From Chlorokybus atmophyticus (Eukaryota; Plantae; Mesostigma and Chlorokybus algae), in contig RHPI01000330.1 of NCBI GenBank assembly GCA_009103225.1, forward strand, positions 81,347 through 124,038: a DNA stretch of 42,692 nucleotides, given 5' to 3'. The translations under genes and the position numbers were made by a program. Shown here piece by piece: positions 1,644 through 41,009 of this stretch. Each line of letters starts with the position of its first letter. Position 1 is the first letter of the stretch. The notes beneath the pieces were generated by a model, which searched no databases, was not told where the DNA came from, and saw nothing but the letters and a program-made list of their open reading frames with translations.

Positions 1644-1931
1644 TATGACTATGACTATGACAGCACAGAGTTGAGAGTCACTGCAGCCGACATCCCCTTG
1701 CCGGTGTGGCCAGAAAAGGGCGATGTCCTGCAGATGCGGCACAACAGCAAGTCCATTTTCGATTTTAGACTTCCGCATGAGCCCCCAGATGAAGATCCTG
1801 CTGACGCACCCCCTTGGGGTGTTGTGGTCAAAGAGGTGCGGTCCGACGGTCATATGGTAGTCGACTACCTGAAAAAGGCAGGGGGGAGGAGGCTAGGCGT
1901 TTGGGTGGTTAACACATCTGCGAGCGACTAG
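1644..1931 (+). pseudogene. Fragment of unknown gene P (paralog of 30780-31080)
   Basis: YDYDSTELRVTAADIPLPVWPEKGDVLQMRH..SIFDFRLP..PPWGVVV..DGHMVVDYLK aligns to AYDFSNPKLRLRAANIPLPVWPETGDVLLVRH..SVFDFRVP..PPWIVIV..EGNMLVDYLK. Homology starts right after the repeat end at 1643. Confidence 0.75.
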
Positions 1932-2390
1932 GTGGAGGACCCTTTCTCAGCCAAAACAAAGCTCGACTGGCCAAGGCAAGGGAGCAGCAGAAGCAGCTTT
2001 GCGTGGACTGAGAGGGGTAGAAGTGATGGACGCGAATGAAATGCAACCAACATCGCATGTATTGAAAGCCAGGACAGCAGGCAGCAAGTGAGTGTGTTTG
2101 CACTTGCATTCACGTGTTTGTGAAGTGTGTGTGTCTGCATCATAGACCAGTTCGGATAACTGCGCCTTGCAGACAACTATGTGCACTGTGCGCGTGTGCA
2201 TGCGACTGCATGTATGATGGCCGAGCAAGCAGGGCAAGCAATGAACATGTAATGGCAATATATTACTGTATACACTTATGCACATCTGTTCTGCAGGCTA
2301 TGTACACTGAATGGATGCCTATAAGCCCAGCCTGCAGCTGGACTATGAGCCCAGCCTACAACCGGAAGTAGGTACCTGGGTGCTACTGAC

Positions 2391-4870
2391 TCAGTCTATA
2401 GGCCATACTAGGGTTGGTGGTGGTGGTGAGTGTCTGCTCAAATAGTAGCCGATCAGGTTTTTATAAATGGCTTTGGTGTAGTGTGGGCTCAGGTGCATAA
2501 CTTGCCGTTGTGCCGCAGTGAGGTGTGTATATGATCTGTTCGCCATGTTCTGATCAAGCAGAAGCAAAAAGTGAGTGAGGCCCGGCTGCAGAGCACCAAA
2601 CGCCTCCAAAGTGTTGGCATACAAAGGGAGCCCATTTTCCGCTAGCTGTTGGTTGCTGTCACGGAGGTCATGGTGCGCTGTGTTTCGGATCAAAACACAC
2701 AGTGCAGCAGGATCACACTGTCCCAAGTGTCTCGTGTCGCTTGATTGTTCCTCTGCGCCCAGGCATTGCGAGCTTGTATGCAGACCGCAAGCTCTGGAGC
2801 CATCAGCTGTTGCCAACCTTGCAAGTACTGTTGTATGCGCTGGGTAGTCTGTGCTCCTCCTTCGCTCAACGAACGTGCCCGCGCGCCGGGACTTTCAGCC
2901 AGGAAGTCCTCCACCACAACCCGCATCCAATTATTAACCAGCACGCGTTCCATGCGAATTTTCTGTTTTTCAACGAGCTCCAAGTCATCTTCTAAGTTCG
3001 TGACCCGCCTGTTAAGTTGATTGTTCTCTCTTTGCTGTTCTCCCTTTGCTGTTCTCCCTTTGCTGTTCAATGATTTTCTCTTGCAGTTCAGCTTCTGGCG
3101 GTAGTGCGGACGTGGAAGGAATGTCAGCAGCTCCACCACCTGGCAGTACAGTCTGCAGCATCTGAAGCGTTTCTTCGAGCCTCTACTGGGTATCTTCTAG
3201 CAGCTTCTCTGTATGACTGACACGCTGCATGGCTTGAGCAACGTTTTCTTTCGATTCTGCAAGGTCCGCCTGCGCCTTCAGGGTTTTCGGGTCGTCCATG
3301 GTGGCTGGTCGCTTGCCGTCTTTGATAAGCTTCTTATTGAACTTCTGGAGTTTGGCATTTTCCTGACGCAGGCGTTTCACCTCTGCATTCAGGGCGTCTG
3401 CTTGCCTGCTTGCATCTGCTTGCAGCTTGCCCCCAGTTCCTTGCGTTTGAGAGGCCAGCCGTTGGAGTTGTTTGTTGAGAGACTCCACTCTTGCTTCGAG
3501 GCGGTTTCTCTCAGCAGTCAAAGATTCAACCTCTGTTTGCAGCTTGCGCCCAGCCTCTTGCGCCTGTTGTGAGGCCTTCCCGAGTTTTTCATTGGGAGAC
3601 TGCACTGCTGCACGGAGCTTCCTCCTGGCCTCCTCGCCTGTGCGCAGGCGCTCGCGCAGGCTCTCATTGTCCTGCCGTAGGCTGCTCGCCTGCAGCTTCT
3701 TCTTGGCCTCCTCGGCTTGGCGCAGGCGCTCACTCAGTTCTGCATTTTCCTTTTGTAGGCGGTCCGCCTCCTTACGCGCCTGCTGAGTGGACGCCTCCTG
3801 CTGCTTCTTTTTGACCTCCTCGGCTTGGCGCAGGCGCTCACTCAGTTCTGCATTTTCTTTTTGTAGGCGGTCCGCCTCCTCACGTGCCTGCCGCTGAAGG
3901 GAGGCCATTTGCTGAAGCTGGATTTGGAGTTGCGAGGCCTCCTCGGCTTTGCGCAGGCGCTCCTGCAGGCTCTGGATCTCCTCCAAGCGTGCTGCTGATC
4001 CTTTGAAGCTGCTCCTCGCCTGCCGTAGGCTCACATTCTCTGTTTCTAAGCGTTGCCTCTCCGCATTGGTCCACCTCAACTGGTGCTAAAGCGTGTCTTC
4101 TTGCTGCTTCCGAATGGAGTCTTGGTGTGACTGCTGACGCTGAAGTCTTGCATGAAGGGCGTCAACCTCTGCTTGGAGCTTTTGTGCTTGCGCGGAGGGC
4201 TGCTGCTGAAGCTGGTAAAGAAGGTTCTGCTGCTTTTTCCTGGCCTCCTCGGCTGTCGCCAACTGCTGTCGTAGGCGGTCCCTGTCAGCAGTGGTGGCAA
4301 CCAACACTTGCGCTGCATCCTCACGATGCAAGGCCAGCACCAACTCTTCATCCAACTCGCTGATCCTGTTAAAGGCGGCCTTGACGTAATCTTCAATGCG
4401 CTTGCAGCGGGTGAGGTGCTCTTTCAAGGCAGGGCGTTCACCGCACAGACGTTCAACTTCTTCCCTCGCCAGCTCTGAACGCCGAGCATTGATTTCTCCC
4501 AGCTCTTGCAACGTTTGTTGTAGCTGTTGTACGCGCTGGCTGTCTTCCGCTCTGGCCTGATCCTGCTGTTGCAGCCTTTGTCGCTCAGCATTGGCTGCAT
4601 CGAAAGCGGCCTGCAGCTGTGGTATGCGCCCCACGGCCTCTTCTCTTTCCTTCTCCTGCTTTGCAAGAGCCACCTCCAGCTCTTGTATGCGCCCCCCGGC
4701 CTCCTCTCTGGCCTTCTACTCCTGTTGCAGCAACTCTGCATGTTGTTGGCTAGCCTTGGCTGCTGCTTCAGCAGCGGTTGATGACTCCGCTGCATGGATG
4801 CGCTTGACATCAGCGCTGGCGGATGCAACGGCCTTAGTGCTTGTAGACGCCTCTTCTAGGTGTTGCTGCA
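2391..4870 (-). pseudogene. Long coiled-coil protein gene (unit A) with in-frame stops
   Basis: ORFs 4086-4673 and 3183-4079 are in the same frame, separated by a TAA. Heptad-like E/Q/R/K/L/A composition with a duplicated motif ARxEADRLQKENAELSERLRQAEE. Further ORF pieces run to 2391. Confidence 0.65.
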
Positions 4871-4964
4871 TCGAAACACCAAGTTAGAGCACGAACACGA
4901 AACAGCGGGGTCATAGACCGAAATGGACAGTGCGGCCTGTGACGCACAAGTAGCCATATACTGA

Positions 4965-5900
4965 CTAATGCTGACTTTGGTTCAGGGTTACCTGAAGTTG
5001 GGGCACTTGCTGTTGGAGGTTTTGGACAAAGCCTTCGACCAACTTGGCTATGTTGCTGGCATTGGCGACTCCTGAACGTGCAGCAGCGATACCGTCTTCC
5101 TTCTTCTTACGAGCGTCGTCGTCACCGTCACCGTTGCTGTCATCATCGCTGCTTTCATGATCGCTGGGTTCATCACCACTGCCGTCTCCATAATGATCAC
5201 CTCCAGCAGGTTCATGATGATCACCTCCAGCAGGTTCATCACGACCTCCAGCAGGTTCATCAACACCAGCAGGTTCATCACCTCCAGCAGGTTTATTACC
5301 GCTGACATGCTGACCCTCAGCAGCACCTTCTGGAGTCCCTCCAGCAGTTTGATGGCCACGGTCTATGGCATTCTTCTCTGCGCTTCCTGGTGGTGGCCTG
5401 TCCGAAAACACTAGAGGAACTGAAGGTCGCCCCAAAACCCCTCCCAATGCTGCAAGTGCCGCAGCAGCAGCGGCAGCAGCAGAGGCAAGAGCAGCATCAA
5501 CAGCAGCTTGAGCAGGATTGCTAGAGGTAGCCGTAGCACCATAAGCAGCACTAGAAGGAGTCGGACCAGGAGCTGCAGCAGGAATGAATGGCCAAGGATG
5601 GTTGCACTCCCACTTGTTGATGAGGTATGCGCGCAAGGACTTGTAATTCTCAGCCCATCCTAGATTCTAAAAATGGATGGTCTTCATCTGCTCTTCCAGC
5701 CAAACTTCTCGCTTCTGTTTCCTCCGATTAGCAATGGCGTTGATGCGTAGCCGGCGTGTCTCCCACTCCGCCTTGTTGCGTTGCTGCAATTGCTTTTGCT
5801 CAGCCTGCCACTGTGCAGTTGTATCTTGGGCGTTTTGAACATTGGTGCGCACGGCAGCTATTTGCTCCTCAGTCAACCAATGTCACCTGCTTTCATTCAG
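4965..5900 (-). pseudogene. Unknown helical/low-complexity protein gene R (unit A)
   Basis: KAEWETRRLR..KREVWLEEQMK and DGIAAARSGV resemble unit B KDWERKIR..RKEWLDELKR and EALAAARDTI. An EPAGG repeat tract lies between them. Confidence 0.45.
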
Positions 5901-6245
5901 ACCATTGCGCACCATGGACAAAATGGTCTTCTCGATTCTTGACTGATAATCCTGCACCTTCAGCCTGTGCTAATTTGCAGCCCGTGTCACCATGGCGCCC
6001 TGAGCGGCAATCTCTTGAAGGCCTTTGCGAATTGTAGTCTCTGCCTTACGGAACACTTCCTTGGTAAGTTTCTGCGAATCATAACCACCAGTTAGAATAA
6101 GAATTACACACAACTCATTTACGTTTAATAACACAAACATACCCTCTGTTCTTTGTCTCGTTCTATTTTGGAGTCTATCTGTCTTAACAGCAGGAATAGT
6201 CTATCTAGCACGCGTGTAAGCTCAGCGCACTTGCTTTCAGCTGAG

Positions 6246-8740
6246 TCAAATATCCCTTTTTACAAAGGCGTACAGACGCCTCTCTAACAGTGTGATTGAC
6301 TGTGTCATTCTGGTGACACAAGTGCAGTCTATGAATGCACAATGACATGTACGACCATATACTGACGAAGCGTTCTCAACACTTACATTCTGTCTTTGAT
6401 TTCGGGCGACTTGTGGTCGTTTCAGCACCCTCCATGTGTAGGCGCCTAAAGATTCACCAGCTTGACGCGGTGCAGTGCAAGCGGCGAGGTACGCGCCGTC
6501 TTCGAGCGCGACGCCATGGCGAGCTGCCATCTCTGTTGCCTCCTTGATAAACTTTTCTCTAGCCGCCTCGAAAAAGTACTCCATGACCTGAGGTAAGATG
6601 GTGATCAGCATATTGTTTGCAATGCTGAATGATAAGGTCATAGACCGCACAGCTCTCACAGATGCAGTCCATAACAGCAAGCGACAGTGTCTGGCAGAGC
6701 AAGTGATGTCTATAGGCATGAGCCACAGGCTGCATATACTCACATTGTTTGTAGGTTGCTCGTTTGGAGGTGGCGGGAAGGGATCGTATTCCATGAGCAG
6801 CTCTTCCCCGGCGGCAATGTCACTCTGACTCCTAACCTTAGCTGCGGTGTAGGCAGGCCTGCACCGCAGCCTCATCAACGGAGTCCATGATGTGGCAGTT
6901 GGGTTTGTACTGCGTATCGCGGCTGGAGTTGAGGAAGCCAGCTATGTTCCCATATCGAGGGTGGCCATCGATGACAGGGCTCTGGCGGCGTGGCACGTCC
7001 CTGATGACCTGCAGGTGGTATCGCTGGTGGTGCAGGTGCTCCTTCTGAGGGAATGTCTTCTGCATCTCCCGGTAGGAGTACCACTTGCCGTCAAAGACCA
7101 TGATGCGATCACCCTTCTTAATAGGCTGGCAGGTGAACAAGCCGAGCCCTGCGCCAGGGATATTAGAAGGCTTGATGACGAACTCTTTGCCAGCAAAATG
7201 GAAGAGTTCGCCTATGGGACTTGGACCATTCGTCCACAGCTGCCATTGGTCACCGGTCGCTCTATGTATGCGCTTGCGGTTGGGAAGCTCTTTGTCACTC
7301 TGCAAACAACAAGTGACGGTAAGTTGCTGTGGATTGTCATAGGCTGCAACTGAGCAGTGCATGCAGCATGGCGCCCATGGCATGTGATCAGCATGCATGA
7401 TACCATGCGAACAAAGACGCACCCGCAGATGTTCTTCTGATGGCGGTGGCAACTCCACAGCGTCCATCCCCGTCTTGGTGAATCGATTGACCTCGGCTGC
7501 AGCATTGGTCACAGCCAGTTCACGGGCCTGCGCTGATCGGTGTTGCCTTGGCGTAGTAGCCTGTGGGGCATCGCCTACAGGTTGGTTCACCCTGCCACCC
7601 TGTGTGTAAGACAATGGTAAGGATATCATATACATTTATTGACTCACAGACTGTCTCGGCCTATGACATAAGACAACGCGCACATGTCCTGATCAGAGCA
7701 GTCTATGAGTATTCGCATGGATACTCACAGGTGTTTGGGGAGTTTTGGGAGAGCCGGCTGCCGATGACGTTCCTATTTTCATGCCTCGCCAGCTGGCATG
7801 CCTCGGTTTCTTTGCAGGTGGCACCACCTCTTCCTCCTCAGACTGCTCCAATTCCAACACCTCCTCCGCAGCCTTCTGCGCTGACTCCTTCGACCCCTCC
7901 TGCATCACATCCTCTGGCTCCCTCCGCAGCAAAGTCGAACTCGGTTTCCTCCGCTGTTGACGCTTCTGCCGCTGAACCTGCAGCGGCAACACCTGAACCT
8001 TGCTGCCGCTGCCGCTTTGTCCGCTTTGGTGTGGTTTGCTCCTTCGGGTAGAGGGGGATGTTGTTGTAATCGTGCTCAGCGTCATCCCAGAATTTCTTGT
8101 TCTGTGTAACAAGCGACAAGGTTAGCAACCAAGGCGTTGTAATGGCATTTTTTTCGCTAACAGTTGCATGCTGCATGTGCTTACAAATGCAAAGGCTCCA
8201 GTGTGATGCTTTCGCAGATACTTCTCGGTAACTCTCCGCACGTTGTCGACGGAAACTCTGCTCTGTTTTGGATGTTTCGGGGCCTGCACGCCAACATATG
8301 CTTCACGTAAGTCAATTTTGTTGCATAGTCTTTTGCCCAGATATCAGTTCACTAGCATGCATACAACGTCTATGAGTCTACAAGTCTATAAGAACAAACG
8401 CACTTTCACAACATCACACGCACCCGTACTGCTTTGGACAGAGAATCCCCCATCCGTCCCTTCAGCTCGTCTGCTGTCTCCCTGCCGCCCTGGTTGGTTC
8501 GTCTGCGCATGTACTTGCAATATCTGATGTGCAGGTGCTGCGCGATCTTTGCAGTCTTGGTGTGTGTAGTTTTTGGAAGCCCGTTCGACTTTAATGGCCC
8601 GCCTTCACGTTTGTTCTGGAGTAGGGACAGTGCCAATAGAAAGTCCGCTAGTGTGAAGGCTGCCTCCGAGTCTCCTCTGAAGTCGACGATGCCGCCGACA
8701 CGGTTAGGATGTCATCATCCATGGTGTTTCTCAGCTTGCT
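6246..8740 (-). pseudogene. SET-domain (lysine methyltransferase-like) gene, unit A; SET core about 6783-7182, frameshift near 6860
   Basis: FVIKPSNIPGAGLGLFTCQPIKKGD...DG...GNIAGFLNSS...PNC, then in another frame DIAAGEELLMEYD. Flanking segments (KIAQH..NQGGRE; PRQAGES.AY) match unit B. Confidence 0.8.
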
Positions 8741-9780
8741 GATCTCTGCAACAACTTGCACTGGATAACACCCTTGTGCAACACAAGCCAGCACTCCGCT
8801 ACCACACCTCCGCCAGCACCGCCAGAACTACCTTAGGCACACCAAACATCAGGCTGCCGGCGGCGTGACAGGCGACCGCATAGGCCGCTCCGACGAACCC
8901 TAGGTCACAGGTACTGGAAGTTGATTCATTTGGAAGTGTTTGTTGTCATATTCCGTCATTTGGAAGTTTTGTTCGCTCGCGCGTGCGTTGTGCGTTGTGC
9001 GCAGTATAGACTTCGGCACTGGTTATCGCAGCTGCAATAAGTCGCGTGCTGTAGACTCTCGTGCTATAGACTGCTATGTGAGCCTATTGTCACCTGGAAG
9101 CTTAGGCGCTTTGTGCATAGTGTAACAATGGTGACCGCAGTGCCTTCTGCCAGCCAAGTGTTCAACTGTGGCAACAACGGCCAGAAAACTGGGGACAGGT
9201 TCATGAGGGACAACTTTTCCTCTGTGCACCCCACCCATGTGCGAAACATGGACAAGTTCACCAACAAGCTCAAACAGTGGGAGCAAATCCCTGGTCCAGG
9301 TTGGAAGGAGGTGAATTTCGACAAGTGGAGCAAGGATCATGCAGCGCAGGCCAGCATTGCCAAGCTGGAGAGGTTCTGTGAGGAGTTAGAGCCGGAGTGT
9401 TGAGATGGACGATGAGAAGCCTATACATACACATGTGTGCACGCCAACAGCAACACCAACATGAGGAAACCATGCACTACAGGACCTTAGCACATGCACA
9501 TGCTACATCGTGACTAGCGACTCTACACCAACAAGAGTGTTTCAGAGTGTACAAGTCCGGGCTTTTATACCCGCCAGCTACACATGCTTCTACTCTGGAA
9601 GCTACTGCGTCTAGCACACTCAACCTTAACCTGCGCTCTAAGTTGCTCCACGTAGCTAACTACAAGAGCTTTCTAACATGCCGCCATACGTGCCATATGG
9701 CCAAGTAACCACCGAGCTATCATCATTCTTCTAACCACGCCTGAGTCTTCCAGATTCATGTCCGCGCCGCGCCTGGAACC

Positions 9781-10211
9781 TGTTGAGAGTCATTCCTACA
9801 TACGATCAGCATCGACCCTCCACACAGGAGTAGAAGGTCGTAAGGATGAGCACTAGGTCCGGACTTAGCAAGATAGCGTCGTCGGACCAGACTCCGGACT
9901 CCAGACTGGAGCCTTACTAACTGCTTCGTATCTCCGCGTATACTTACTCATATTAGGCGTGTAAGAGCTTGTTGGAAAGCTCTGGTTGTAAGAAAGACAA
10001 CACCGCTTAGAGCGCGTCAAAAGGCTGAGTATAGCTTACGCAGTGCTTGCAAACGTAGACGTGTGTGTAACTGGCTGGTATAAGAACCAGCGGACAACTT
10101 GTAATAGATGAATGTGATGTGACTTGCGTATGCTCTGGTGGCGGTAGCTCTGTCTTTGTGTGTCTTTGTGTATGCTTGCCTCAGCTACATGTGCATGCTA
10201 GTTCTTCAATA
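9781..10211 (+). repeat. 5' LTR of copia-1 (431 bp, ends CAATA instead of CAACA)
   Basis: TG start, direct repeat of 15161-15585, followed immediately by the PBS. Confidence 0.95.
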
Positions 10212-10224
10212 GGTTATGGGCCCA
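10212..10224 (+). promoter_or_regulatory. Primer-binding site GGTTATGGGCCCA (half-tRNAiMet type); second copy at 11102-11114
   Basis: Directly abuts the LTR end. Same sequence as the internal-tRNAiMet PBS known from Drosophila copia. Confidence 0.85.
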
Positions 10225-10339
10225 CACTACGCTTGAGGAGTGTGAGACTAGCTTGTGTGCATGGTAGTTCTACACTACGGTAGCTTGTTGGTAGCAAAGC
10301 CTTGGGTGTCAACTGCGAGTGAAGGCAGGCACGACAAAG

Positions 10340-10956
10340 ATGGAGGCGACCTACGACAAGGGGCAGATTGCAAAGCTGGACACCGACAACTACAACACAT
10401 AGTGCGTGGAGATGAAGGCCTTGCTCATCCATAAGAAGGTGTGGAAGTTTGTTGATCCGAAGGCACCACCACCACCACCAGGAGCGAACACTGTGTGGTC
10501 AGAGCATTCAGCAGAAGCACACTCTTTGCTTGTGTTGAACTGCAAACCGCATCACTTTCCCATGCTCATTGCATGTGAAGATGGTAGACAAGTTTGGGAA
10601 AAGCTATCAGCCGTTTTCAGAGCCAAGAACAACGCCAGAAAGTTGCAGCTACGCAAGCAACTGAGCGCACTCAGGAAGGAGGCAGCAGAACCCATCACAA
10701 AGTATGTTGCACGCGCGAGAGAGCTGTGGGCGGACCTTATCAACGTCGGCCACGACATGGGGGAGACGGAGGTTGTGCTGGCTGCTGTTGCAGGGCTACC
10801 AGCAGAGTACGAGGTCGTTGCAACACTGCTGGAGACATCGTCATTGGAGCTGACGCTGGACGATGTACTACCGAAGCTGCTCACCGTGGAGCAGAGGGTG
10901 ATGAAGAAGGACGAGCAAGCTGATGCCGTGGCCTTCTACACCAACAAGCACGGGAA
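10340..10956 (+). pseudogene. gag: Truncated, diverged gag copy
   Basis: MEATYDKGQIAKLDTDNYNT*CVEMKALL... has TAG at 10400 where the sister copies have TGG, and breaks into LTR sequence at 10957. Confidence 0.9.
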
Positions 10957-11101
10957 GTGTGTGTAACTGGCTGGTATAAGACCCAGCGGACAACTTGTAA
11001 TAGATGAATGTGATGTGACTTGTGTATGCTCTGGTGGCGGTAGCTCTGTTTCTGTGTGTCTATGCTTGCCTCAACTACATGTGCATGCTAGTCCTTCAAC
11101 A
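10957..11101 (+). repeat. Internal partial LTR (last 145 bp) followed by a second PBS
   Basis: gtgtgtgtaactggctggtataag...gtccttcaaca followed by ggttatgggccca. Confidence 0.92.
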
Positions 11102-11229
11102 GGTTATGGGCCCACACTACGCTTGAGGAGTGTGAGTCTAGTTTGTGTGCATAGTGGTTCTACACTACGGTAGCTTGTTGGTAGCAGAGCCTTGGGTGTC
11201 AACTGCGAGTGAAGGCAGGCACGACAAAG

Positions 11230-14200
11230 ATGGAGGCGACCTACGACAAGGGGCAGATTGCAAAGCTGGACACCGACAACTACAACACATGGTGCGTGGA
11301 GATGAAGGCCTTGCTCATCCACAAGAAGGTGTGGAAGTACGTTGATCCGAAGGCACCACCACCAACACCAGGAGCGAACACTGTGTGGTCAGAGCATTCA
11401 GCAGAAGCACACTCTTTGCTTGTGTTGAACAGCAAACCGCATCACTTTCCCATGCTCACTGCATGTGAAGATGGTAGACAAGCTTGGGAAAAGCTATCAG
11501 CCGTTTTCAGAGCTAAGAACAATGCCAGAAAGTTGCATCTACGCAAGCAGCTCAGCGCACTCAGGAAGGAGGCAGCGGAACCCATCACCAAGTATGTTGC
11601 GCGCGCGAGAGAGCTGTGGGCGGACCTCATCAACGTCGGCCACAACATGGGGGAGACGGAGGTAGTGCTGGCCATTGTTGCAGGGCTACCAGCAGAGAAC
11701 GAGGTCGTCGCAACCCTGCTGGAGACGTCATCGTCGAAGTTGACATTGGACGATGTGCTACCGAAGCTGCTCACCGTGGAGCAGAGGGTTGTGATAAAGG
11801 ACGAGCAAGCGGATGCCGTCGCCTTCTACACCGGCAAGCATGCAAAGAAGAGCAACCATGAAAAGAAGTACAAGGGCAACAAGCCAGGCAATCCTCGTCA
11901 CAAAGACCTCACATGCCACTGGTGTGGTTGGAAGGGGCACATTGTAAAGGACTGTAGGAAGAAACAACAGGGGCAACTTAGAGCAAGCACCAGCAACAGC
12001 GGCAACGAGCACCAACACAAGGAGAAACATGTCGCCTTCACTGCATCCAGTTCGAGGGCGAGCACAGCTTTCTGGGTGGTGGACTCTGGCTGCGATCGTC
12101 ATCTCACAACAAACAAGGAGATGATGGAGGGCTACAGGAAGCTGACGTCTGCAATCAAGGTGGCGGGCTTCGGTGGCGAAGTACTGATGGCTGAGGGAGT
12201 TGGCAACGTACGACTCCAGTGCAAGGTTGGTAACACACTACGCGAGGTATTGTTACGCAACGTCCTGCATGTTCCTAAGGCTATTGCGAGTCTATTCTCT
12301 GTGAGGGTTGCGGAGCGCTTAGGCGCGGAGATCCTATTTCGGAAGGGTGGCTGCTCAATCATCCTTGATGGGGTCGTGCACATGGTTAGAATCGCTGATC
12401 CGGGAGGGCTCTACCACGTGAAGCACCCTCAGGACATTGACATTCAAGCCATGATGGTGAAGGACAAGGAGTCGCCAACATTGTGGCATCGAAGGTTCGG
12501 GCATCTCAGCTACGTCAACCTCACTCGCCTTGTTGCTGAGAAGATGGTCAAGGGCATCCATCTCAGCACTGAAGAACTCAAGAATGCATCAGGTGCACTT
12601 TGTGAACCATGCCTGGTTGCAAAGCAGCATGCTATGCCATTCTCATCATCCTCTTCAAGCAGTCAGCATCCTTGCGAGCTTGTGCACATGGATGTCTGTG
12701 GCCTTATGCGCATTGTGGCGAAGGGAGGAATCAGGTACTTCGCTACATTCCTCGACGACTGCAGCAAGCTATCCGTCATCTTTCCATTGACACTGAAGTC
12801 AAAAGTTGCTGGAGCTGTGCGCACAGTTGTGGCCTTGTTGGAGACCCAGTCTGGCAACAAGATGAAGGCAATGAGGAGTGATCGAGGAGGGGAGTACATC
12901 AACAAGGAGTTGAAGGAGTTCTTCGCCAGCAAGGGCATACGCCACGAGACAACCGCACCCTACACCCCGCAGCAGAATGGAGCAGCTGAACGCCTCAACA
13001 GGACACTCATGGAGCGTGTTCGAGCCATGCTCAACGACACAAAGATGGATGATAGTCTGTGGAAGGAGGCGGTACTCACTGCCAAGTACATCCGCAACAG
13101 GTCTCCGGTGAGCTCAGAGCAGAAGACTCCGTGGGAGCACTTCTATGGAGCCACACCAGATGTGAGTGATATACGTGTGTTTGGATGCACGGCATATGCA
13201 CTAGTGCCTAAACAGCTCAGGCACAAGCTGGAGCCGGTCAGCAAGAAGGGCATCTTCGTTGGCTATGAACCGGGTTCCAAGGCTTATAGGATCTTGCTCG
13301 AGGACACTCAGAAGATCATTGTAAGCAGAGAGGTGGTTTTTCACGAGGGATTATCACAACCAGAAGCAGGCTTCTTTCCTGAAGATGAAGCACAGCCGGA
13401 GCATCCTGAAACAGTGGAGGCTACAGGCAAGGCCATCATCAACAACAAGGGTGAGCAGGACTCAGCTGTAGCAGGCCAAGAGGAGCCGTACCAACAGCAG
13501 GAGCACGCAGCTCGGAGATACCCAGTGAGGGAGAGAAAGACACCTGACTTCTTATACAAGGCACACGTCGCCAGTATGCACAATGAGGAGCTAAGCACCT
13601 ACGAGGAGGCATTGTTAGCACCAGATGCGGAGCAATGGCAGCGTGCTATGGACGAGGAGATTGCGTCACTCCATGGCAACAACACTTGGTCACTGGAGCA
13701 GATTCCGCCAGGAGTAAAGACCATTCCAGTGAAATGGGTCTTCAAGGTGAAGCGTGATGGTCACGGCAACATTGAGCGCTACAAGGCAAGATCGGTGGCA
13801 AAGGGGTTCTTGCAGCAGGAAGGTGTGGACTTTAACGAAGTGTTTGCACCTGCAAGTAAGCATACCACCTTCCGTGCACTGCTAGCTATGGTTGCTGCTG
13901 AAGACCTAGAGCTGCATCACCTGGATGTGAAGACTGCCTTCCTCTACGGAGAGCTGGAGGAGGAGATCTTCATCGAGCAACCACCTGGATATGAAGAAGG
14001 GGAGAGAGGCACAGCGTGCAAGCTGATCAAGGCACTGTACGGGCTGCGACAGGCACCGCGTATGTGGCACATCAAGCTCACCAAGGAGCTGGAGGCACTT
14101 GGCTTCACCGCATCCTCTGCAGACCCTGGGCTCTTCATCCATGCAGACAACAAGGTCTGGCTGCTCGTGTATGTTGATGATATCATCATCACCGCCAGGC

Positions 14201-15118: not shown

Positions 15119-15160
15119 CTACAGGAGCAAGCGTTGGAGGTCAAGCTGCTCGCGTGGGAG

Positions 15161-24545: not shown

Positions 24546-24587
24546 CTCCCACGCGAGCAGCTTGACCTCCAACGCTTGCTCCTGTAG

Positions 24588-29347: not shown

Positions 29348-29460
29348 GGGCCGCACCACAGCCACAAGGGACACAACCTTACCGGATCTGGGCCGCACCA
29401 CAGCCACAACGGACACAGCATCACTGCATCCGGGCCACGCCACGGCCACAACTAATACGT
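29348..29460. repeat. 42-bp degenerate tandem repeat, about 2.7 copies
   Basis: gggccgcaccacagccacaa starts at 29348 and 29390, with a variant at 29432. Confidence 0.8.
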
Positions 29461-29933
29461 CACCGTCGTTGGACAATGAAGACCAAGACATGCCTGCTCT
29501 ATTCGCATCGAAGACAAGGAGGTCCCTGCTCCCCATCTACGAGAGGGCATCATCGCCGCTCCACAGGGCTTTGTGCGCGGACCAGTCTGGTCGCGTGTTC
29601 CGCGGCCTGCGAACCAGAGGAGCACGGGATTGAACCGGTACAGGTTTTTTGAAGCAAGCCCGGTCCGGACATAAGCATCGTAAGAACCAGGCCTAGCACG
29701 TACAGTGACAACCGATCGGGCGCCTCACACGTCAGCAGAGGTAAGTACGACAATGACCCTGTCGCATACTCAAACCCTAGTCGCTATGTGTCGTACTGGG
29801 GCACTGCTTGCGGCGTTGCAACCGGCAAGCTATCGGAGGCGGCGGTGCTAAGGGTAGGCCTTGAACATGTGGTGGTGTTGAAGCTTCAGTGCATGTGGCT
29901 TGCAAGTAGCGGATGCCAACAAAGCTATGATTC

Positions 29934-31240
29934 ATGCACTACTGTACAACGGCTCCTGTGGCCGGTGCTACTGCCAGTGTCTCAGTCGACAATGCGGCAC
30001 TGTTGCGCTGCCATAGAGTTGGCAACATACTGTCTACAATCTGCAGAACAAAATTCAACGGGTCCACCTGGTATGAGGTCGCCACAATCAAGCACGCAGA
30101 GGATATTTGGGCGCTTGTGGAAGCATACCCCACCCTGGCACACTCCAGGCGCATCAAAAAACAAGGCAGTGATTGGGCGAGGCAATACTCATTACGTCAC
30201 GAGCGACGGCTTGTTCGAGAGCATCTGTGCACAAGAGAACATTGCCATTGGCACCCCGACACGGCGGATAGTGCGCGACTACAAAGCCTATATGAGGGAC
30301 GGCCTGGTATACAGGTGTGCTTTATATCTTGATTATGCAGCACAGCTGTCATCGACAGTCCCACCAACGACTGTCACTGGTGCGGCTGTCCGTTAAAGGG
30401 TCTCCATCTCTGATATCTACAGTCCCAGCATTGACAGCCGCGCAGACTGTCAATGCTGAGACTGTCAAACAGCGACTGACAGATATTCTCTCTCTCTCTC
30501 ACACACAGGCGCGACTGCAAGGATGCTGTGATGCTGGATGGAAACAGGCCAGCCATCGTCAATAAAATCTTCATGTTCTTTCACACCGAGTGCCATGTGT
30601 ACATTGCTGTCAACCGCTACAGCCTGCAAACAGATGCTGCTGGAAATCAATGCATGGACGCAGACTCCGATGCCTTGCATGTGGGGCGTTTGGAAAACAC
30701 CAACATTCTTGTCCGAGGCCACCAGCTGCTGCGCAAAGTGTGGATGCTGACGGAGAGACCAAGGCTGCTCCCCTACATGCTGGCTTACGATTTCAGCAAC
30801 CCAAAGCTGCGATTGCGAGCAGCTAATATACCTCTGCCAGTATGGCCTGAAACCGGGGATGTGCTGCTTGTGAGACATGAGGATGAGAAGAAGTCGGTCT
30901 TTGACTTTCGCGTGCCAACTGACCCACCAGCACCTGTATCTGATGATCCTCCGCCATGGATTGTTATTGTTCGATAGCCTCAAGTTGACGATGAAGGCAA
31001 CATGTTGGTTGACTACCTGAAGCCTGCTCCTAGATCAGTGAGTGCTCGCCAAGGCCTACCGCGGTGGGTGGTCAATAAGGACTGTCGCAACCAGAAGGTG
31101 TCACCCATTGCGGTCAAGAGGAAGCTCAACTGGCAGCAAGTTGATCAAGGCAGATGGCAAGAGCAGCCAACAATTGAGGTTGTGCGTATGTTTTACGACA
31201 GGCACATCATGTACTACAAAGCAGGCGAGGCTGAGGCAGG
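29934..31240 (+). pseudogene. Unknown gene P (unit B), probably spliced, disrupted
   Basis: ORFs 29934-30332, 30528-30977 and 31002-31304. The last two are in one frame across a TAG (IVR*PQVDDEGNMLVDYLK). Homologous to 1644-1931. Confidence 0.6.
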
Positions 31241-31517
31241 TACGCATCACTTGTCTCATCAGTGTTGTTCCTTGACAGTCCCATGGACAGTCGGCTGTCC
31301 ATAGGACTGTCGGGTAACAACACTATCAGTGTGTGTTTTTGGCACAAGGCATTACACAAGGCATTACGAAGCACGCATTGGTTACTGTGAGTAACACACT
31401 TGTACATTTCACAGATTATGTACACAAGGAAGGGTCAAGCGTACCAGCAGATCTACTTGCAGCGCGCAAAGGCCAACTGCTAGGCAACTTACACTAAAGC
31501 TATAAACCAGGGAAACA

Positions 31518-33250
31518 TCAACCAGCATCAGGAGGAGGAGGTGGAGGACGAGGAGGACCAGCAGCAGCACCAACAGCAGGAGGAGGAGGAGGAGGAGGAG
31601 GAGGTCTTGGTATGGAGCACTGAGCGCGGTAGCTGCTGAGGGCTGATACACCTGCGGGGGTTTGCAACCACGCCCATGCAGCGGCATAGTCCATTGGACG
31701 CTGTAGCTGATACAATGGCGCTGCCGCTGGTCCTCGAAATGAAGCCATCCCTTCGTCAAGGTCACGGAGGTGGTGCACAAACGTTGATAGCATGACAACC
31801 ATTACGTCAAACATGGAAATTAGGGTAGCGCACCTTGTGATTTCGGGTTCCTGCAAGATGCCAGTGTAGTGCGACTCGGCGTTCCTGTAGAAGTCCCAGA
31901 ACCCACTGGCACCTTGTTGAAAGCCAGTGAATAGAATGGCACTCCGTTGTGATTGCTGCCACGCCTGCCTGATTGCAGCTGCACTCCGTATGAAGATACC
32001 CGGCCGTTCGACTGGGTCCTCCCGAAATCTTTGTGGCCAATCGTCAAAGAGCTGAGTGTTTGGCAAACGGCCCAACACTATTGTACGTTCGTAGTTTCGC
32101 AGTGCAAAAAATTGGTTGGAGACCTCACGCGCCCACTCCCTGTTTTTGCCGATGAGGTACTGCGCACGATCCTGCGCTACCTGCTGGAGCTGTGCTCTGT
32201 GATGAGCCACCTGCCTGTCCAGCTGTTCTTTGAGGTCTCTCACCTGCTTGTCTAAAGCTTCTGCACCTGCTAGCGCTTCATTCAGCTTTTCGTCAACGCA
32301 TGGGTCGACAGCCCCTCCGACAGCCTCTGATGTTGAAGGCACTGCAGCCAGCCTCTGCTCCAACTCTTGATAGCGGGTTTGCGCCTCTGCCAGCTGCCGC
32401 TCTGCTTCATTGGCTCTTCTTGTCGCGGCATCGACAGCCGCTGCATCGACAGCCCCTCCAACGGCCTCTGATGCTGACTGCCTCGCCGCTTGCTGTGCTA
32501 CCTCCTGCTCCAGCTGGCGAATGCGCTGCCGAGAACTCTCCATCTCTTCCCCAATCTTGGCGCCCGCAGAGGAGCTAGAGGCCATTGCCAGCATGCGCGA
32601 TTGCAAATCAAAGTTTCGCAATTCGAGGTAGCGAATCTGGGCGTCAATTGATGCCGCACGCTCCTTGGCGGCTTCGAGTGCTATAGCCAACCATTTGCAG
32701 TTTGGCGACCTCAGCATCGGTGGTTGCAGCCCTCTGCTGCAACTCCTCCCTCTCCTTGCGCAGGGCGTCCACCTGAGAGTTGGAAGCGGCAGCCCTCTGC
32801 TGCAACTCCGCCAATTCTTTTGGTAGCTTGGCGACCTCAGAGTTGGCTGCAGCCCTCTGCTCCGCATGCTCCAAATCCTTGCGCACATTGTTGACCTCAG
32901 CATCGGTTAATGCAGCCCTTTGCTCCGTCTCCTCCAAATCATTGCGCAGCTTGGCAATAACAGCATCTGATGCCCCAGCCCTCTGCTCCGACTCCTGGAA
33001 CCTCTTGCGCAGCTCGGCTAAGAGTAGGTTGAACTCATCGTTTGTTCTTGATGCTGTCTTCATCGTCTCCTCCAACTCCTTGCGCACCCGGGCGACCTCA
33101 GCGTTGGCATCTGCAGCCCTCTATTGCGTCTCCTGTAACTCCTCGTGAAGGATTGCAACCTGTTGCTGCGACTCCGCTACTTTAAGGTCAAGAGTACGCT
33201 GGTAATACTGCTTGCGCGCTTCGTTCTCACACTGACTAGGCTGGTCTGCA
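31518..33250 (-). pseudogene. Long coiled-coil protein gene (unit B) with a stop and a frameshift
   Basis: Repeated EQRAA..xAEV motifs in 32644-33148, continuing in ORF 31518-32903, which ends in a Pro-rich tail. Same position and strand as 2391-4870. Confidence 0.65.
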
Positions 33251-33352
33251 GGTTGTCACGAGTTGCAAGAACGCGCTCTTGTCCTTGCTGTCGCACATAG
33301 ACATCAAGTAAGTACAGAGGCCACAACAANGTACAGAGGCCACAACAGATTA

Positions 33353-34420
33353 TCAAAGCCCCCCCCCCTCTTCTTCCACAAAGACTGTACGCGATGCAAT
33401 TATTCTCACCAATGCTTGTCTTGTAAGCCCGAGGGCGAATGACAGCTGTTCTGCAGAAATCTCCACAGCGTTTGCCACTTCCTCGCTCAATTTCGATGCG
33501 TCATTGACGGCCTTGCGGTGCTCCTCGTGGGCCTTCTTGAAACCTTCAATTGTATCACGCGCTGCTGCTAAAGCCTCCTCTCCAGCTTGTGGCCGCACAG
33601 CTGGTGGAGTTTGCCGTGCAGGAGTGTCCGGCTAAAGGGGACGTTTCTTCTCAGCTGGGGGTGTAGACATGGGGGCACTTGTTCTCTCTCTCTTTCTCTT
33701 GGCAGATGGACGAGGACTGTCATGGAGACTGTCGTGAGGTGGACTGTGGTGAGGTGGACTGTCGGCTGGTGGACTGTCCGCGCGACTGTCATAAGGTGGA
33801 CTGTCCTTGGGACTGTGGGGAGGTGGAGTGTCAGGTGGAGGATTTTCACGCTCAGCTTGTCTCTCCAGCCAGGTCTTCAGTGGTGGAGGTGCGGGGTGCA
33901 AGGGCACTCTCAACTGATGGAGATGATCGTCGTGTGAATGGGGAGTATTAGGGTTGTTGATCGCCACCAACAAAGATGCTGCAGCTTGTGCCTCCGCCCG
34001 TGTGTTAGCTTCGCTCTGCTCTTTTACAAGTGTACGCACAATGTCCCGCTTGAGTTCGTCAAGCCATTCCTTTCTGGACTCCTTGAAGCCCTTCTGGAGC
34101 ATACCCCGGATCTTTCTCTCCCAATCCTTTTCCCAGTCCTCTCCCTTCAGTGCCAATGCTGTCGCCTGCCTGATGAGAGCCCCCTCTCTGGTAGCAATAG
34201 CTGCTGTCTGAGTTTTGTGCATCTCGGCAGTCTTTCCCTGGAGACCAGCGACCTTTTCCTGCAAAAACAGGTAACAGTTTAAGCAAATGTGTGAAGTGAA
34301 AGGTGCACCACATGCTGACGTACCCTGATCACGTTCTCTTGTTCTATTCGTAGGTCTAACTCCCTAATGACTTGTGTTAAGGCGTCGACTTGTCTGTTTG
34401 CGGCCTCTTTCATTTCGTAG
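33353..34420 (-). pseudogene. Unknown gene R (unit B) with a DSPP-repeat tract
   Basis: ORFs 33632-34264 and 33353-33598. The DSPP repeats are encoded by GACAGTC motifs. Weak homology to 4965-5900. Confidence 0.45.
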
Positions 34421-34619
34421 GCAGCATCATAAACCGCTTTACAGAAATGAACAGATATTTGACGCTGAATATGGGCTTTAGAATCTATCTGTTGACACAT
34501 GCACGGGATCTTGGTTGTTAGCATACATGTCACAGTGCATGCAAGTGCACTGCGACAGGAATGCAAACAGCAGACTGTCGATAAGACTGTCGGATAGACT
34601 GTCATTCTTGGAAGACTGT

Positions 34620-36740
34620 CAGTACAACTCACCATTCTTGTCTTTGCGTCCGCACTGGCATGCTGAAGACACGCTGGACTAAACGCATGGAATATGCGAA
34701 GTCACTCTCGCCCAGCTGCCTTGGTGGCTTGCTGGTAAGCAACCACATAGCGTCCTCCGTGGTCAACTTCCAACTTCTCGCAAGCCTCTACGCCGCATCC
34801 TCCGTTTGCCACAGTTGGGTCTGCCAGCAAAGAAGGCAAGTTAGTTTCCAGTGTCACAGTTGTGGAGTCATTGACAGTCTCGCATTGACAGTCGCATTAA
34901 CAAGGCATGCAAACTGGGCATGCAGCAATGCAATCACACTTACTTGGTCTGTCTGCCCATCTGGTGGCGCAGGGAAAGGGGTGTAGTCTAAGAGTAGCTC
35001 CTCCCCTGCCTTGATGTCCCTAGTCGCATACACAGTGACAGCTGGGTGGCCGACGTCATCGAAGTCCGAGTAGAACATGACGTTGGGCTGAGTGTGCCCA
35101 TGTGCGAATTGATATAAGCCGCTACACAGCCAGTGCGGGGGTGCCCGTCGATGACAACCTGAGATTGGCTTGGTGTATCTGGTGGAAACAGGTTGACGTG
35201 ATATCGCCGGTGGTGTCGGATGTCGCTGATTTGTTGGTAACGATGCAAGACCTCCTCCATCTCATGTTGCTTAAACCATTTGCCATCATATGGCAACAGG
35301 TAAGCCTCTGCACAGATGCGCACAAGTCATGAGTGATCCGCGAGTACACAGAGAGACATGCACACAAAGATACACACGCACACACGTGCACGTACCGTTT
35401 GGAATGTCTTCGCAGGCAAACAGTCCCAGTCCAGCACCAGTGATGGTTGAGTCTTTGATCAACCAGTTGTGCGTAAGATACTTGAACTGCTCGTTGACTG
35501 GGATGCGTGTGGATGCTCTTGCATCCTCCACAATATCCAGTCTCCACAGCTGGTGCTTGTCTCCAGCGCTACGATGGATGAGCTTGAGGTTTGGTATCTC
35601 CCGGTCAGTCTGTTTAATGCAGTGATAAGTAACCATCAGACTCTAGCGCAAAGACAAACACAGACCATTACATTGGCATAGGCTGTCATGATATGTTCTC
35701 ACCCTCAAGTAGTCAGCAGAAAGTTTGGGTGGCGCTTTAGAATCTGTTGAAGGGTAGCGTTTCACTTGGAATTTGTTCATCTCTTCAAGAGCACTGGCGA
35801 ATTCCGCTGCATAATCCACCGCTGCGGCTTAGCGACGCCTTGAGGGTTTCCGCTTCGGTGGACTAGGTATCGCACCCTCCTCGTCCTTGTCCTCGTCCTC
35901 GTCCTCATCCTGTGGTTCTCCTGCTACTCCTGCTCCTCTTGATCTTCCTGCTCCTCGAGATCGTGTTGCTCTGCGTGTCCAGGTATGCATAGCCGCCAGC
36001 TGTTGCATTTCTTCGTACAGTTCTTTGGTCTGAAACGTGGCAGGGTTAGTACGCATGTTGCAGTATGGGTTCATTGCTGCTGTGCGAATTCAGCAACTCG
36101 CATACCCTGGAATAGCCTTGATGTCTGCCATCTTGCAGTGCTTCAAGTTTGGGACTATGGGATTGGGGTAAGGGGGCAGTTGCTCATCCTGCAGCACGCC
36201 GCTGCTGGTGAGTTGCATTGTGCGTTCATACATGTCACGAAACTTCAAGTAGTCCAAGAACACGACGGTTGCACTCATATTACAACCGATATGCGCAGTA
36301 TTCAAGCAACGGCTGTCGAGTATCTGCACCATGCGCCAATGCGCTGTACGCACGCGCAAGGCACAGATCATTGACAGTCCAGGCAGGATGTTGCAAAAAC
36401 TTGGATCAAGAATGCCTGAGGGTTCCTACCCTGATGGATTGCTGGATTTCCTCTGCCAACTTTTCGAGTGTAGCCTTGTCCTCCCTCCCTCCCTTATTGC
36501 TGAGCACGCGCATCATTCGGCACAGAGCACCGTTCCAGTGCTGTGCGTTTTTCGTGGGCTTGGTCTCTCCCATACCAGGTTGGCCGTTTGCATAACGGTG
36601 ACCAGCATGCACGTTGTTCATACAGTAAAGGCAGCCCCATATAAACTGCGGCGCTGTGGACGACCTCCTTCGAGCCATGGTGTACTGCCTGGGACTGTCC
36701 ACTGTGCCAAGAGACTGTCGACGCCTACCCAACAGCACCC
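34620..36740 (-). pseudogene. SET-domain gene, unit B; SET core about 34980-35465, intron 35308-35395, frameshift near 35090
   Basis: LIKDSTITGAGLGLFACEDIPN, then EAYLLPYDG...VVIDGHPRTGCVAAYINSH, then in another frame PNVMFY..VTVYATRDIKAGEELLLDY. The GT-AG intron restores the frame. Confidence 0.82.
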
Positions 36741-37413: not shown

Positions 37414-39630
37414 ATGTCCACTGGGGAGGCAAGACAAATGCCCGCTGCAGCTGATTGCTTCAGAGCAAAGGGGAACCACTTGCTGGGCCAAGTGACGGGC
37501 TCGCAGTTTCTGATGAAACCAGAGTTCAAGCATATGCGCACAACGCATATCAACAACCTGGCGAAGCTGAAAAAGAGATGCTGAGCAAGTGGCCACCACT
37601 TCAAGGCATGAAAGGCACAGACTTCAAGCAGAACGCCCAGCACCGGCATGAGCTGGACGATGTCTGCGAGACTGTATTGCAGGCGTCAGAGCAACTGGTC
37701 TTTGAGACAGACCACACCCTGAAATGGACCAAAGGCAAGCTGCTAGTAGAGTTGAGCTGTGTTGAAGCAAGCCTTCCAAGCAGCATGGCACTTACTCCTC
37801 GGTTTTATCATGTCTCCTTTTTTGTCTTGCCATTGACAGTCCTAGCCCTGCATATCATTCATGCTTTCAGTTCTCGGTTGCTCACTAACCAGTTGCGTTA
37901 TGCTATGTTCCAAGATGTGACCTCCTTGCTGATGGCTACCAAAGGACTGTCGCTGCCATGTCTCATCTGCTTGTGTTTCTGCAGCACAAATCAAGAGTCA
38001 TGTTCTCCAGCTACAGTATTCTGTTGGCGCGAAGTGCGGTAGTGATTACGGGCAAAGCATGGAAGAACGCAATGCTATTAAGAAGCAAAGGCGATCCAGC
38101 GACAGGGAAGCTACCCAAGGCAGCCGCGCTACTGAAGCTGCTGCTGGCTGGGGCATGACTTTTTCGATTGGCAGGGACTTGAGGGCCAACCAGCAGGTGG
38201 TCATGCTTGCACCTTTGACTGCTGAGCCTCTAACAGATGCTCAGTACCGGGCCACTTGGCTGAAAGAGAGGTAACTATTGTGCTGTCGGCTGTCGATCAA
38301 GTTCTACAGTCCTCACTGGTTTGCTTAGCTGTGCCTCCATGGCTGCGTATTGGATTCACATATGCTGCCTGCTAACTCAGAATTTCCTAACAGGGGTGCG
38401 GACGGGTTCGCTGAAGATCAGGTGTTTGACATTGCCAACAACGCAGTAGTTGTTGGCGTCGCCACCATCAAGTCCGTATGCGAGCCAGAACAACCAATGC
38501 GGACGTACAATGTCGGTGTTACCCACTGGATGCCAGTGAGAAGCGAGGATGGCAACCTTGGCATTCGCCTACCTGTGAAAGAGAGGCATTTTCTCTATGG
38601 CCAGCTGGCAAGCAGCTGCCATGGTGGGCGTACTCTGGAGGTACATTGCTTGCTGTGGATATGCTCCTGCTGTGACTGTATGGTGCATGAGTGCAAGAAC
38701 ATTTCTGTGTTAAACAACATGCAGGGCAGGGAGATGGAGTGGCCCATGATGTTCTTGGCCGGCGGAGGCATCTGTCCATGTGAGGCATGCGGCAACGACG
38801 ATCGCATTGTGGTGCCGGGTTGCATCAAGGACATACTGCCTACGACCGCAGCTCGGCACAGCACAGACACAGAGGTCAGTAAGGGCTGTTGTCAGCGCAT
38901 GGCATGACTCATTGGCACGCGTTTGCTCGCACACTCACAGTAGCACACATACCATCTCTTGCAACATCACGCACAGTGTCCAACTATCTGTTGCTCACTG
39001 CCTCTCACAGACACGGACACACACACACACACACACCATGCTTGTATGGCGTTATGTTATACCGCGCGCTCGTGGTCCTCACAGTCACTTGACAGTCGCA
39101 GGCTGTCCCATATGGACAGTCGCCAATGCACTCTATTGACGGATGTATGACATGTGCAGGCTGCTGGAGCCATCTCCGACTGTGAAGATCAAGCAGTTGC
39201 AATGGACTTGGATTTTGCAGCTGCAATTGTTTGCGACACCAAACCAAACGCCCCCACTAGAGAGCAGGCGATGGACGTGTACGAGTACTACCAGCACATT
39301 GAGCACGCGGTATTCACCAGTCGTCACCAGCTGCCATTCAAGGATCCTGAGCGAATGGAGTCTTATCGAGACGAGAGTATCTTGCGAGCAGTTGTCAGCT
39401 TTGCAGCAAAGAAAAAGTGGTTGGTGGCCAACGATGAGGTTGAAGGAGGGTGCGAGTGGCGATATGAATCTCGCAAACTACCAGGTATGCATATTGAACT
39501 GCAAGTCATTACACAGTCCTTTGGTAGTTGTCGAGGCGACTACACATTGCAGAGCTGTTGAGCGAGGGAAGGAAGAAAAAGCCATGGCAACCCAAGAAGC
39601 AGTGGATGCGACAGCCCTCGTCATCCTAGG
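37414..39630 (+). pseudogene. Unknown multi-exon gene Q (unit B)
   Basis: GQVTGSQF..THINNLAK, RATWLKER followed by GT, DQVFDI..ATI..RTY..WMPV, EWPMMF..GICPCEAC and LPFKDPERM..AVVSFAAKKKW all match gene Q-A. Confidence 0.65.
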
Positions 39631-40083
39631 TGGGTGGTTTATTGTGCTACAGTTGCATGTGTGTGTCAACACTGTATGTCTTGTGTAAGCACAGGTAGAC
39701 TCACAGTTGTTTTGCAGACATTTGATGCACGAGTTGGCTGCAGGGGCTGTTTACAGAGGCTGTCAAACAAGGGTGTCCCTGGCTCCAAAGGCTGTCGTTG
39801 GCTCCTGAGGCTGGGAGTCAGCACACAATGTGGAAAGATGGGAGTGGCTTCACATGGGGTCCAGCTGCCCAGGCGAAGGTGCAACACAACAAAGCTGTTG
39901 TCAGCTGCGACTGTCAACAGCAGCGTGCAGTGCATGTAGGAGACTGTAGGTATAGTACATGACGCTAGCTTAATACTGATGATCATGATCAGACTGTCCT
40001 TTGACAGTCCATTCCAGCATTTTTGTGAATTGTATGCATGGCGGATTGTATGCACTAGGCATGGTGCATGAAACAGCACGCAC

Positions 40084-40640
40084 ACCATGCATGGCTTCCA
40101 TGCATGCGACATTATGACAGACCATGATTGGTGCACCAAATAAAGGTAGACCGCACCATGTATGGTGCGGTGCCTGGCAGGACCATACGTGGTGCCGCTT
40201 GTGGACCATGTATGCGCAACACCTTGTCGGTAGCCATGGACCATTCATGGTGCGACTGTCGACCAGACTGGCACCATATGTGGTCCACTGTGCAAGGAGG
40301 GCAGCGCACCATGATTGGTCCAGGCAATCTCAGTAACAAACATGACTTGCGGTCCGTATCCATGGACCATGTATGGTGCGACTATCAGGCACCGGACATG
40401 AAGCAAGCAACAAACCATGGATGGTCCGCTGTTCCAGGGGGCATCGCACCATGCATGGTGCATAAATCTCATGCATACTGGCCACCATGCCTAGTGCGTC
40501 CCAAGGGACAATGGTACCATTCACGTGAAATTCGGACCATGCATGGTCCGACTGTCCATGAAAGCCGGACCATACATGGTCCGTCAATTTCACTTAGCAG
40601 GGGAAAATCCCGGTCCTGCGTCACGGACCACTCATGGTCC
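40084..40640. repeat. Cluster 3 of ACCA-N4-TGGT (right end of unit B)
   Basis: About 12 perfect copies (spacers tgat, tgta, tacg, ttca, tatg, tgat, tgta, tgga, tgca, tgca, taca, ctca) plus near-matches. Confidence 0.9.
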
Positions 40641-41009
40641 TTGAACGTCAATCCGTGTGACCCTCATAATCACTCAAGCAGCAGCGACGTAGGACAAGCC
40701 CAAGACACACAGCAGCAGCAAGCGCACGAGCCTATGCAGAACCCTCCAGAACAAAGGTGAGGGGATGCCTTTAAAAACCCCTCACACAGCCCCAGCAGCA
40801 TCAGCAATAAACACGGCACCAACAATCTCGCAAGCAGCACCAGCACTAGCAAACTTTTAAAAATCACTGCAATCGCCCCTCTCAACTGAAGACTTCGCCA
40901 GGATTGTTGCTCAAGCGACAGTGTCGGCCTTAGCAGCAACAGCGCCTCACACCCTTCAAAACCAGCCGCCAGCGCCAGCCTCACCTCAGCAGTAGCTTCT
41001 GGCGAACCT

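Follow-up and report, generated by a model that had tools for sequence, protein, structure and literature searches.

The window analysed here, a 42,692-nucleotide stretch of contig RHPI01000330.1 from the alga Chlorokybus atmophyticus, contains two collinear units, A (about 1.5-19.0 kb) and B (30000 to 40659), lying among retroelements. Each unit carries, from left to right, the remnant of a plus-strand gene that we call P, a minus-strand gene in which a SET domain appears to be joined to a long coiled coil, a plus-strand gene of no recognised family that we call Q, and an array of short palindromes leading to a sharp right terminus (Table 1). A six-frame comparison of positions 1-24100 with 29001-42692 showed that gene order and strand are common to both units, as an initial annotation of this DNA had proposed, and every peptide which that annotation had quoted as shared was found at its place. 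Unit B, which had been taken to start at about 29.8 kb, has a body that begins at 30000, the preceding 29562-29999 being other sequence.

Table 1. Features of the analysed window (LTR, long terminal repeat; TSD, target-site duplication; RT, reverse transcriptase).
Feature	Positions	Strand	Description
P, unit A	1643..2430	+	3' remnant, cut deeper than P of B; stop at 1929
SET-coiled-coil gene, unit A	2690..8710	-	probable single multi-exon gene, from splice phases and frames; N-terminal GGRE exon, acidic linker, SET (7299-6744, frameshifted), R exons, low-complexity linker, long coiled coil
Q, unit A	9131..18290	+	orphan gene with small Cys cluster; LTR nest interrupts first exon
Right end of A	18473..19053	+	10 GACCA-N4-TGGT palindrome sites; terminus CCGTGTG
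P, unit B	30000..31470	+	3' portion of a longer gene
SET-coiled-coil gene, unit B	31520..36680	-	probable single gene, from Pfam SET, frames and splice phases
Q, unit B	37414..39630	+	aligned with Q of A; no homologue
Right end of B	40025..40659	+	10 palindrome sites; terminus CCGTGTG
Partial right end from a third family member	1330..1642	+	head-on fusion into P of A; 4 palindrome sites
Likely left end of another family member	29562..29999	+	CACAGGG, then one GGACCA..TGGTC palindrome; in Gypsy integrase, fused to B
Later insertions in Q of A	9402..15718	+	solo LTR (TG..CA, TSD CGGAG) holding Copia 9781-15586 (TSD GAACC)
Flank between units	19054..29561	+	decayed Gypsy: protease-like, RT, RNase H, integrase start; Pfam RVT_1, RT_RNaseH
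Second Copia, inside Gypsy flank	24122-29026		TSD GAGTG

The two units resemble each other in protein (about 28-43% identity), and no DNA similarity was found outside a Copia LTR and the shared ends: a blastn comparison of A with B returned matches to the Copia LTR and a single 32-nt match at E 0.08. In translated searches, P reached 43.5% identity over 131 amino acids (E 2e-24), the SET region 31-33% (E 7e-26) and Q 30-39% (E 1e-6 to 2e-11). The spliced Q cores are identical at 96 of 273 residues (35%), with an alignment score of 354 against -6.5 for the best of 200 shuffles, and the SET cores at 66 of 163 (40.5%). Intron phase is common to the units in all three introns examined, two of which lie at the same residue and one within three residues. 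Judged from these comparisons, the homology is old and has been maintained at the protein level, and a recent duplication is ruled out, in agreement with the initial annotation; its observation that both units are decaying also holds, stop codons and frameshifts being present in A and in B.

Five genes per unit had been counted previously. We count three, because the SET domain, a block of exons labelled R and the coiled coil share one strand and join via phase-0 introns and one long frame, from which we infer a single minus-strand gene. The SET exon is followed by an exon encoding PRQ.GES and then by the R exons, with introns at positions that align between A and B. In unit A, the introns linking these exons are all in phase 0, and the open frame of the last R exon (6071-4973) runs toward the coiled coil via a low-complexity linker, broken by three stops only; the corresponding frame in unit B (34258-33440) contains one stop. 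Reconstruction of the spliced proteins, which the initial annotation had suggested, yielded Q and SET cores that align between the units and left one junction of B (34632) out of phase. The SET domain of B, at about 35610-34944, has one extra intron and one frameshift. Both SET domains exceed the Pfam cut-off (A, E 4.3e-5; B, E 8.7e-6) and retain the motifs GAGLGLF and EELL..Y; sequence searches of the PDB gave weak SET matches at most (best E 0.02) and otherwise chance rows, and homologues of the SET alignment or exon were not found among the longer proteins of the database or in viral contigs. The gene is predicted to write histone marks. Two features qualify this prediction, namely that the motif reads NSS or NSH where ASH1L reads NHS, and that both copies in the window are frameshifted.

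Q had no family match in Pfam, where nothing credible was returned for either P or Q. No homologue of Q was found among the longer proteins of the database or in viral contigs, and its best Atlas score, 0.80, is at chance level. The intron of Q in unit A contains tandem repeat units of 57 bp (16077-16361), and units of 149 bp lie upstream of Q in unit B (37015-37347), the two sets being unrelated in place.

Both units close with the same right end. The pattern GGACCA-N4-TGGTCC-N12-CCGTGTG has two matches in the window, ending at 19053 and 40659, and none in 100 shuffles. The last 36 nt of the two ends are identical at 25 positions, and the last 150 nt fold with z scores of -4.0 in A and -6.9 in B. 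All 35 strand matches to the shorter pattern GACCA-N4-TGGT fall in three end regions, against 0.47 expected: 15 at the end of A, 13 at the end of B and seven at 1354-1630. The initial annotation had correctly seen a palindrome array in both units, while overlooking the sharp 3' terminus that they share. The third region belongs to the fragment ahead of A, 123 nt of which are 96% identical to 18892-19014, and which ends about 7 nt before the CCGTGTG terminus. Read inward, the right terminus is CACACGG, that is, of the 5'-CAC..GTG-3' type.

A left end appears to be preserved at one place in the window. Here we drew on X1 and X2, two public runs from two studies, which contain 0.53 and 0.50 of the sampled words of B. 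A contig from X1 tracks the Gypsy frame up to 29561 and then diverges from the window, which turns to CACAGGG at 29562; past this point the contig reads like what we take to be an integrase zinc finger. A contig from X2 with further palindromes aligns to 29587-29624. Over 29562-29999 the two runs contain only short matches, mostly at about 85%, and the flanking CTC is unlike the flanks of the right ends; B is therefore best described as a deletion fusion. The CACAGGG at 29562 is likely to mark the left end of a sister element. This end agrees with the terminal letters of the right ends at six of seven positions but stems from another copy, neither unit retaining its own left end. The subterminal inverted repeats are thus present in an asymmetric arrangement, with 10 sites at each right end and one imperfect site at the left fragment.

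The same runs contain further copies of the units. Contigs from X1 and X2 cover B, introns included, at about 97-99%; where B has its stop at 30975 they have a C, and at its frameshifts (30167, 32691/32694 and 37569) they carry indels. More intact copies appear to be present in the two public runs. Other contigs follow the P and Q exons and then switch to different intron sequence, from which it follows that more diverged families exist; one relative of B, at about 84%, shares the donor at 30315 and has a different intron. The initial annotation had named, among the findings that would refute a mobile family, that only these two copies existed and were syntenic with conserved host genes in relatives; near-identical and diverged copies alike were found outside the window. 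The right flank of B (40860-41779) is uncovered in both runs, a gap that does not by itself point to an empty site.

One contig in each run aligns with P of unit B from 30000 onward, preceded by 201 letters of other sequence in X1 and 130 in X2. Thirty of these upstream letters are identical in the two runs and, read by eye on the assumption that they abut 30000, contain no stop in the P frame. P thus extends upstream of 30000 in both outside runs and is a longer gene, of which the window retains the 3' portion. In the Atlas, the stop-free part of the P exon of B (30510-30974) lies next to fungal clusters, at 0.94-0.95 and with 187-196 features in common; DUF6830 occurs in 17% of the members of one of them. 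DUF6830 lies at the C-terminus of Plavaka-type transposases, and the strand pattern of the P exon presumably resembles such C-termini. Models of P from AlphaFold were of too low confidence to use (pLDDT 35 and 34), and a Foldseek search yielded nothing at E 0.001. From its position, its truncation and this one weak Atlas lead, P is likely to be the tail of a deleted transposase gene. The stretch 29770-29856, considered as a catalytic exon, was ruled out, the contigs of the B family beginning at 30000. The initial annotation had recognised no transposase; Pfam likewise found none in the surviving exons, and we attribute this to the core most likely having been deleted from both copies, P being cut at its 5' end.

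That the units are parts of an intron-containing mobile DNA element carrying a SET gene, as the initial annotation had inferred, is supported by the shared termini, the subterminal palindromes, the left end interrupting a Gypsy integrase and the copies in outside runs. We consider it probable that A and B, both decayed and truncated on the left, derive from two old families of one large cut-and-paste transposon, putatively of the CMCT (EnSpm/CACTA/Plavaka-like) group, and we hold with greater confidence that the element is a cut-and-paste DDE element of some kind, whether CMCT or Kyakuja-Dileera-Zisupton (KDZ). EnSpm termini are described as 5'-CAC..GTG-3', and CMCT termini as mostly CA..TG with duplications of 2-5 bp (PMC12730594); the CAC..GTG trait is present here, the right ends reading CCGTGTG and the left fragment CACAGGG. 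In the supplement rows of the same source, EnSpm-1_PGr and ESTA-10_PSt start with CACCACGG, to be compared with CACACGG in the units, whereas the ends given for PlavakaA (TGT..ACA) and PlavakaB (CATCA..TGATG) do not match. Plant CACTA elements such as Spm/En and Tgmt* are described as having a short terminal repeat and stem-loop subterminal repeats that are distributed asymmetrically, with many copies at one end but few at the opposite one, and that are bound by TnpA (PMC2613891); the units resemble them in both respects and in putative protein binding. Unlike these elements, the units have no Tnp2 or Ptta match in Pfam, end in CACAC or CACAG rather than CACTA, and carry SET cargo on the opposite strand.

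Several observations weigh against this assignment. A catalytic DDE region is absent, as are the C(2)C and H(3-4)H motifs, so that the class is assigned from the ends and one weak match. Even with the threshold relaxed to E 10, Pfam detects no transposase domain in P, the Atlas recognition score of P (1542) is under the guide value of 2300, and DUF6830 is limited to that minority of a single cluster. No relative of P was found in 1.84 billion representatives, in a 5.8-billion set (longer proteins only), in metagenomes or in viral contigs. At the left end, the only palindrome is imperfect, as is the end itself, and over its 438 nt similarity to the right ends is no longer than in shuffles. No target-site duplication has been preserved: the left flank reads CTC and the right flanks ACC and CAG, though these ends come from different insertions. 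Between B and its relative at about 84%, 12 codons differ synonymously and 18 non-synonymously among 83 (38 of 40 rows), a modest constraint. Kyakuja elements, moreover, end in CA..TG without terminal inverted repeats (TIRs), and the ends in the window fit CA..TG.

This last point belongs to a reading in which the units are a giant KDZ or other DDE transposon, with the same cut-and-paste logic and cargo and a transposase of another class. Consensus rows of Dileera and Kyakuja start with CAC (PMC12730594 supplement), KDZ elements are described as giant and often laden with cargo (PMC12477816), the left end is a poor inverted repeat, and Q has a small Cys cluster. KDZ insertions are marked by duplications of 7-8 bp, and no paired flanks are preserved in the units. 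The sole lead for P, however, is to fungal clusters of the DUF6830 type, the surviving exons (the core being deleted) have no KDZ or CxC match in Pfam, and dense subterminal palindromes with a CAC(C)ACGG-like start suit EnSpm/ESTA better, which leaves the KDZ reading unlikely. We rate as rather improbable a new class of mobile element, mobilised by an enzyme other than a known transposase and with P and Q as novel machinery: P, Q and the SET gene lack a sequence relative in any database searched, but the missing enzyme is accounted for by deletion, given that P extends upstream in the outside runs, the ends fit a known class, and orphan status is weak evidence in collections that are mostly prokaryotic or word-limited.

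A rolling-circle element of the Helitron or Replitron type would explain the hairpins at the 3' end, the truncation of copies on the 5' side and a head-to-tail arrangement. Both units have kept the right end and lost the left, a right-end copy stands in direct orientation ahead of A, and Helitrons are reported to be able to capture SET genes (bioRxiv 10.1101/2025.02.11.637652). Pfam found no HUH Rep or helicase in the surviving exons, the deleted part lying outside view; the direct repeat of about 150 nt before A lies within P and does not include the terminus, and B has no equivalent of it, while direct repeats of Replitrons are described as short and terminal (PMC10288648); and a CAC left end exists. 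We regard this explanation as very improbable. Least probable of all, in our judgement, is that ordinary host genes underwent a segmental duplication long ago, or that a fragment of a virus became endogenised. A SET domain and spliceosomal introns whose positions are shared look host-like, but the conservation of non-coding termini, the existence of several diverged copies and the decay within retroelement nests do not fit conserved host genes, and no conserved-gene or viral homologue was found. The initial annotation had also offered an endogenised virus-like unit as an alternative, which the searches do not support: none of 13 pieces matched PHROGs, a collection that does not cover eukaryotic viruses, and P, Q and SET had no match in viral contigs.

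Nineteen metagenome loci matching the terminal pattern were rejected as relatives, none showing translated or DNA similarity to the units; L004, considered individually, is bacterial. Five of the loci (L004, L005, L012, L015 and L017) contain a repeated palindrome-rich element (GGGACCAC..GTGGTCCC), unrelated to the units, in GC-rich metagenome contigs, and L004 carries bacterial genes and, between 205-nt inverted repeats, an inserted major facilitator superfamily (MFS) gene. Another repeat, with a palindrome of the type GGACCAC-N2-GTGGTCC and no similarity to the units, is shared by L001, L003, L006, L010 and L016 in AT-rich contigs.

The surrounding retroelements include one young Copia family, whose three copies within 33 kb (9781-15586, 24122-29026 and 42611-42692) are 97-99% identical; in the first, part of the LTR and gag is tandemly duplicated internally at about 10058-10960. 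Within the Gypsy remnant, about 20930-22200 is AT-rich (42% GC at 21001-22000), with CACACGG at 21149, and is possibly another insertion. The flanks from 19054 and from 40660 onward contain decayed frames that by eye resemble Gypsy gag, with no Pfam match for 41229-41528; gag-like frames at both right ends hint at insertion into retroelements.

An intact CMCT-like element would read, in order, left TIR, transposase gene (ending in P), SET-coiled-coil gene on the opposite strand, Q, palindrome array and right TIR. Cutting by the transposase would take place at the CAC..GTG ends. By analogy with TnpA, which binds the subterminal repeats of CACTA, a protein encoded by the element would bind the GGACCA-N4-TGGTCC repeats, and Q is the most likely candidate for this role. 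The SET protein would methylate histones, plausibly countering silencing of the element. The solo LTR and Copia entered Q of unit A later. Local deletions in this retroelement-rich region would have cost the units their left parts and joined stray ends of sister elements to them. A more speculative extension, which we consider doubtful, is that the units represent a deep CMCT-like lineage with a self-targeted chromatin writer, in which Q bound to the array would recruit the SET-coiled-coil protein, so that histones are marked and silencing is escaped. If true, such self-marking would be a histone-methylation counterpart of VANDAL, intact across families that are 30-40% identical in protein.

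The initial annotation had proposed the element family as a candidate undescribed one. Its anatomy fits the CACTA/EnSpm type, SET cargo on giant EnSpm elements is already published, and cargo of this kind is known from red algae and oomycetes, so the element class is not new. In the red alga Bostrychia moritziana, giant Plavaka elements of the EnSpm superfamily are described as multi-gene, 17-19 kb long and mostly degenerate, with a SET-domain accessory gene and inverted-repeat arrays beside an accessory gene (bioRxiv 10.1101/2025.02.11.637652), both of which are points of likeness to the units. According to that source, PAG2 of Bostrychia fuses SET to an adenine methylase and PAG3 combines ParB with a 2-oxoglutarate (2OG) oxygenase, whereas in the units SET would be joined to a long coiled coil; the unit exons scanned had no methylase, ParB or oxygenase match in Pfam, though PAG3 itself needed HHpred to be recognised, so that a remote relationship of Q to it is conceivable. 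The units have two accessory genes, Q being an orphan, against three in the Bostrychia elements described. Cargo of epigenetic enzymes is also a likeness to EnSpm/CACTA, ESTA and Plavaka elements of the CMCT group, the fungal cargo described being TET/JBP, unlike the SET of the units (PMC12730594). HarbingerS and MuDR of Phytophthora are named as carrying SET (PMC12730594 and bioRxiv 10.1101/2025.02.11.637652); they, SET-carrying Helitrons and VANDAL share with the units a SET gene or anti-silencing protein on a transposon, and differ in superfamily and termini, the VANDAL protein not being a SET. Ectocarpus is described as a further host of giant elements, both EnSpm and KDZ, that carry accessory genes (PMC12477816). 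No element combining a SET-coiled-coil gene with a Q-like orphan was found in a literature search that did not include Repbase Reports and most subscription papers, and the cargo set is apparently one more case, independent of the known SET-carrying transposons.

In the sources cited here, SET-carrying transposons are known from few lineages, where the role of the gene is proposed only. That the cargo order has been kept in two families matching in DNA at their ends only suggests that the cargo helps the element. The palindrome array provides a defined candidate binding site, and the idea of self-marking thereby becomes testable, with more intact copies apparently available in public runs.

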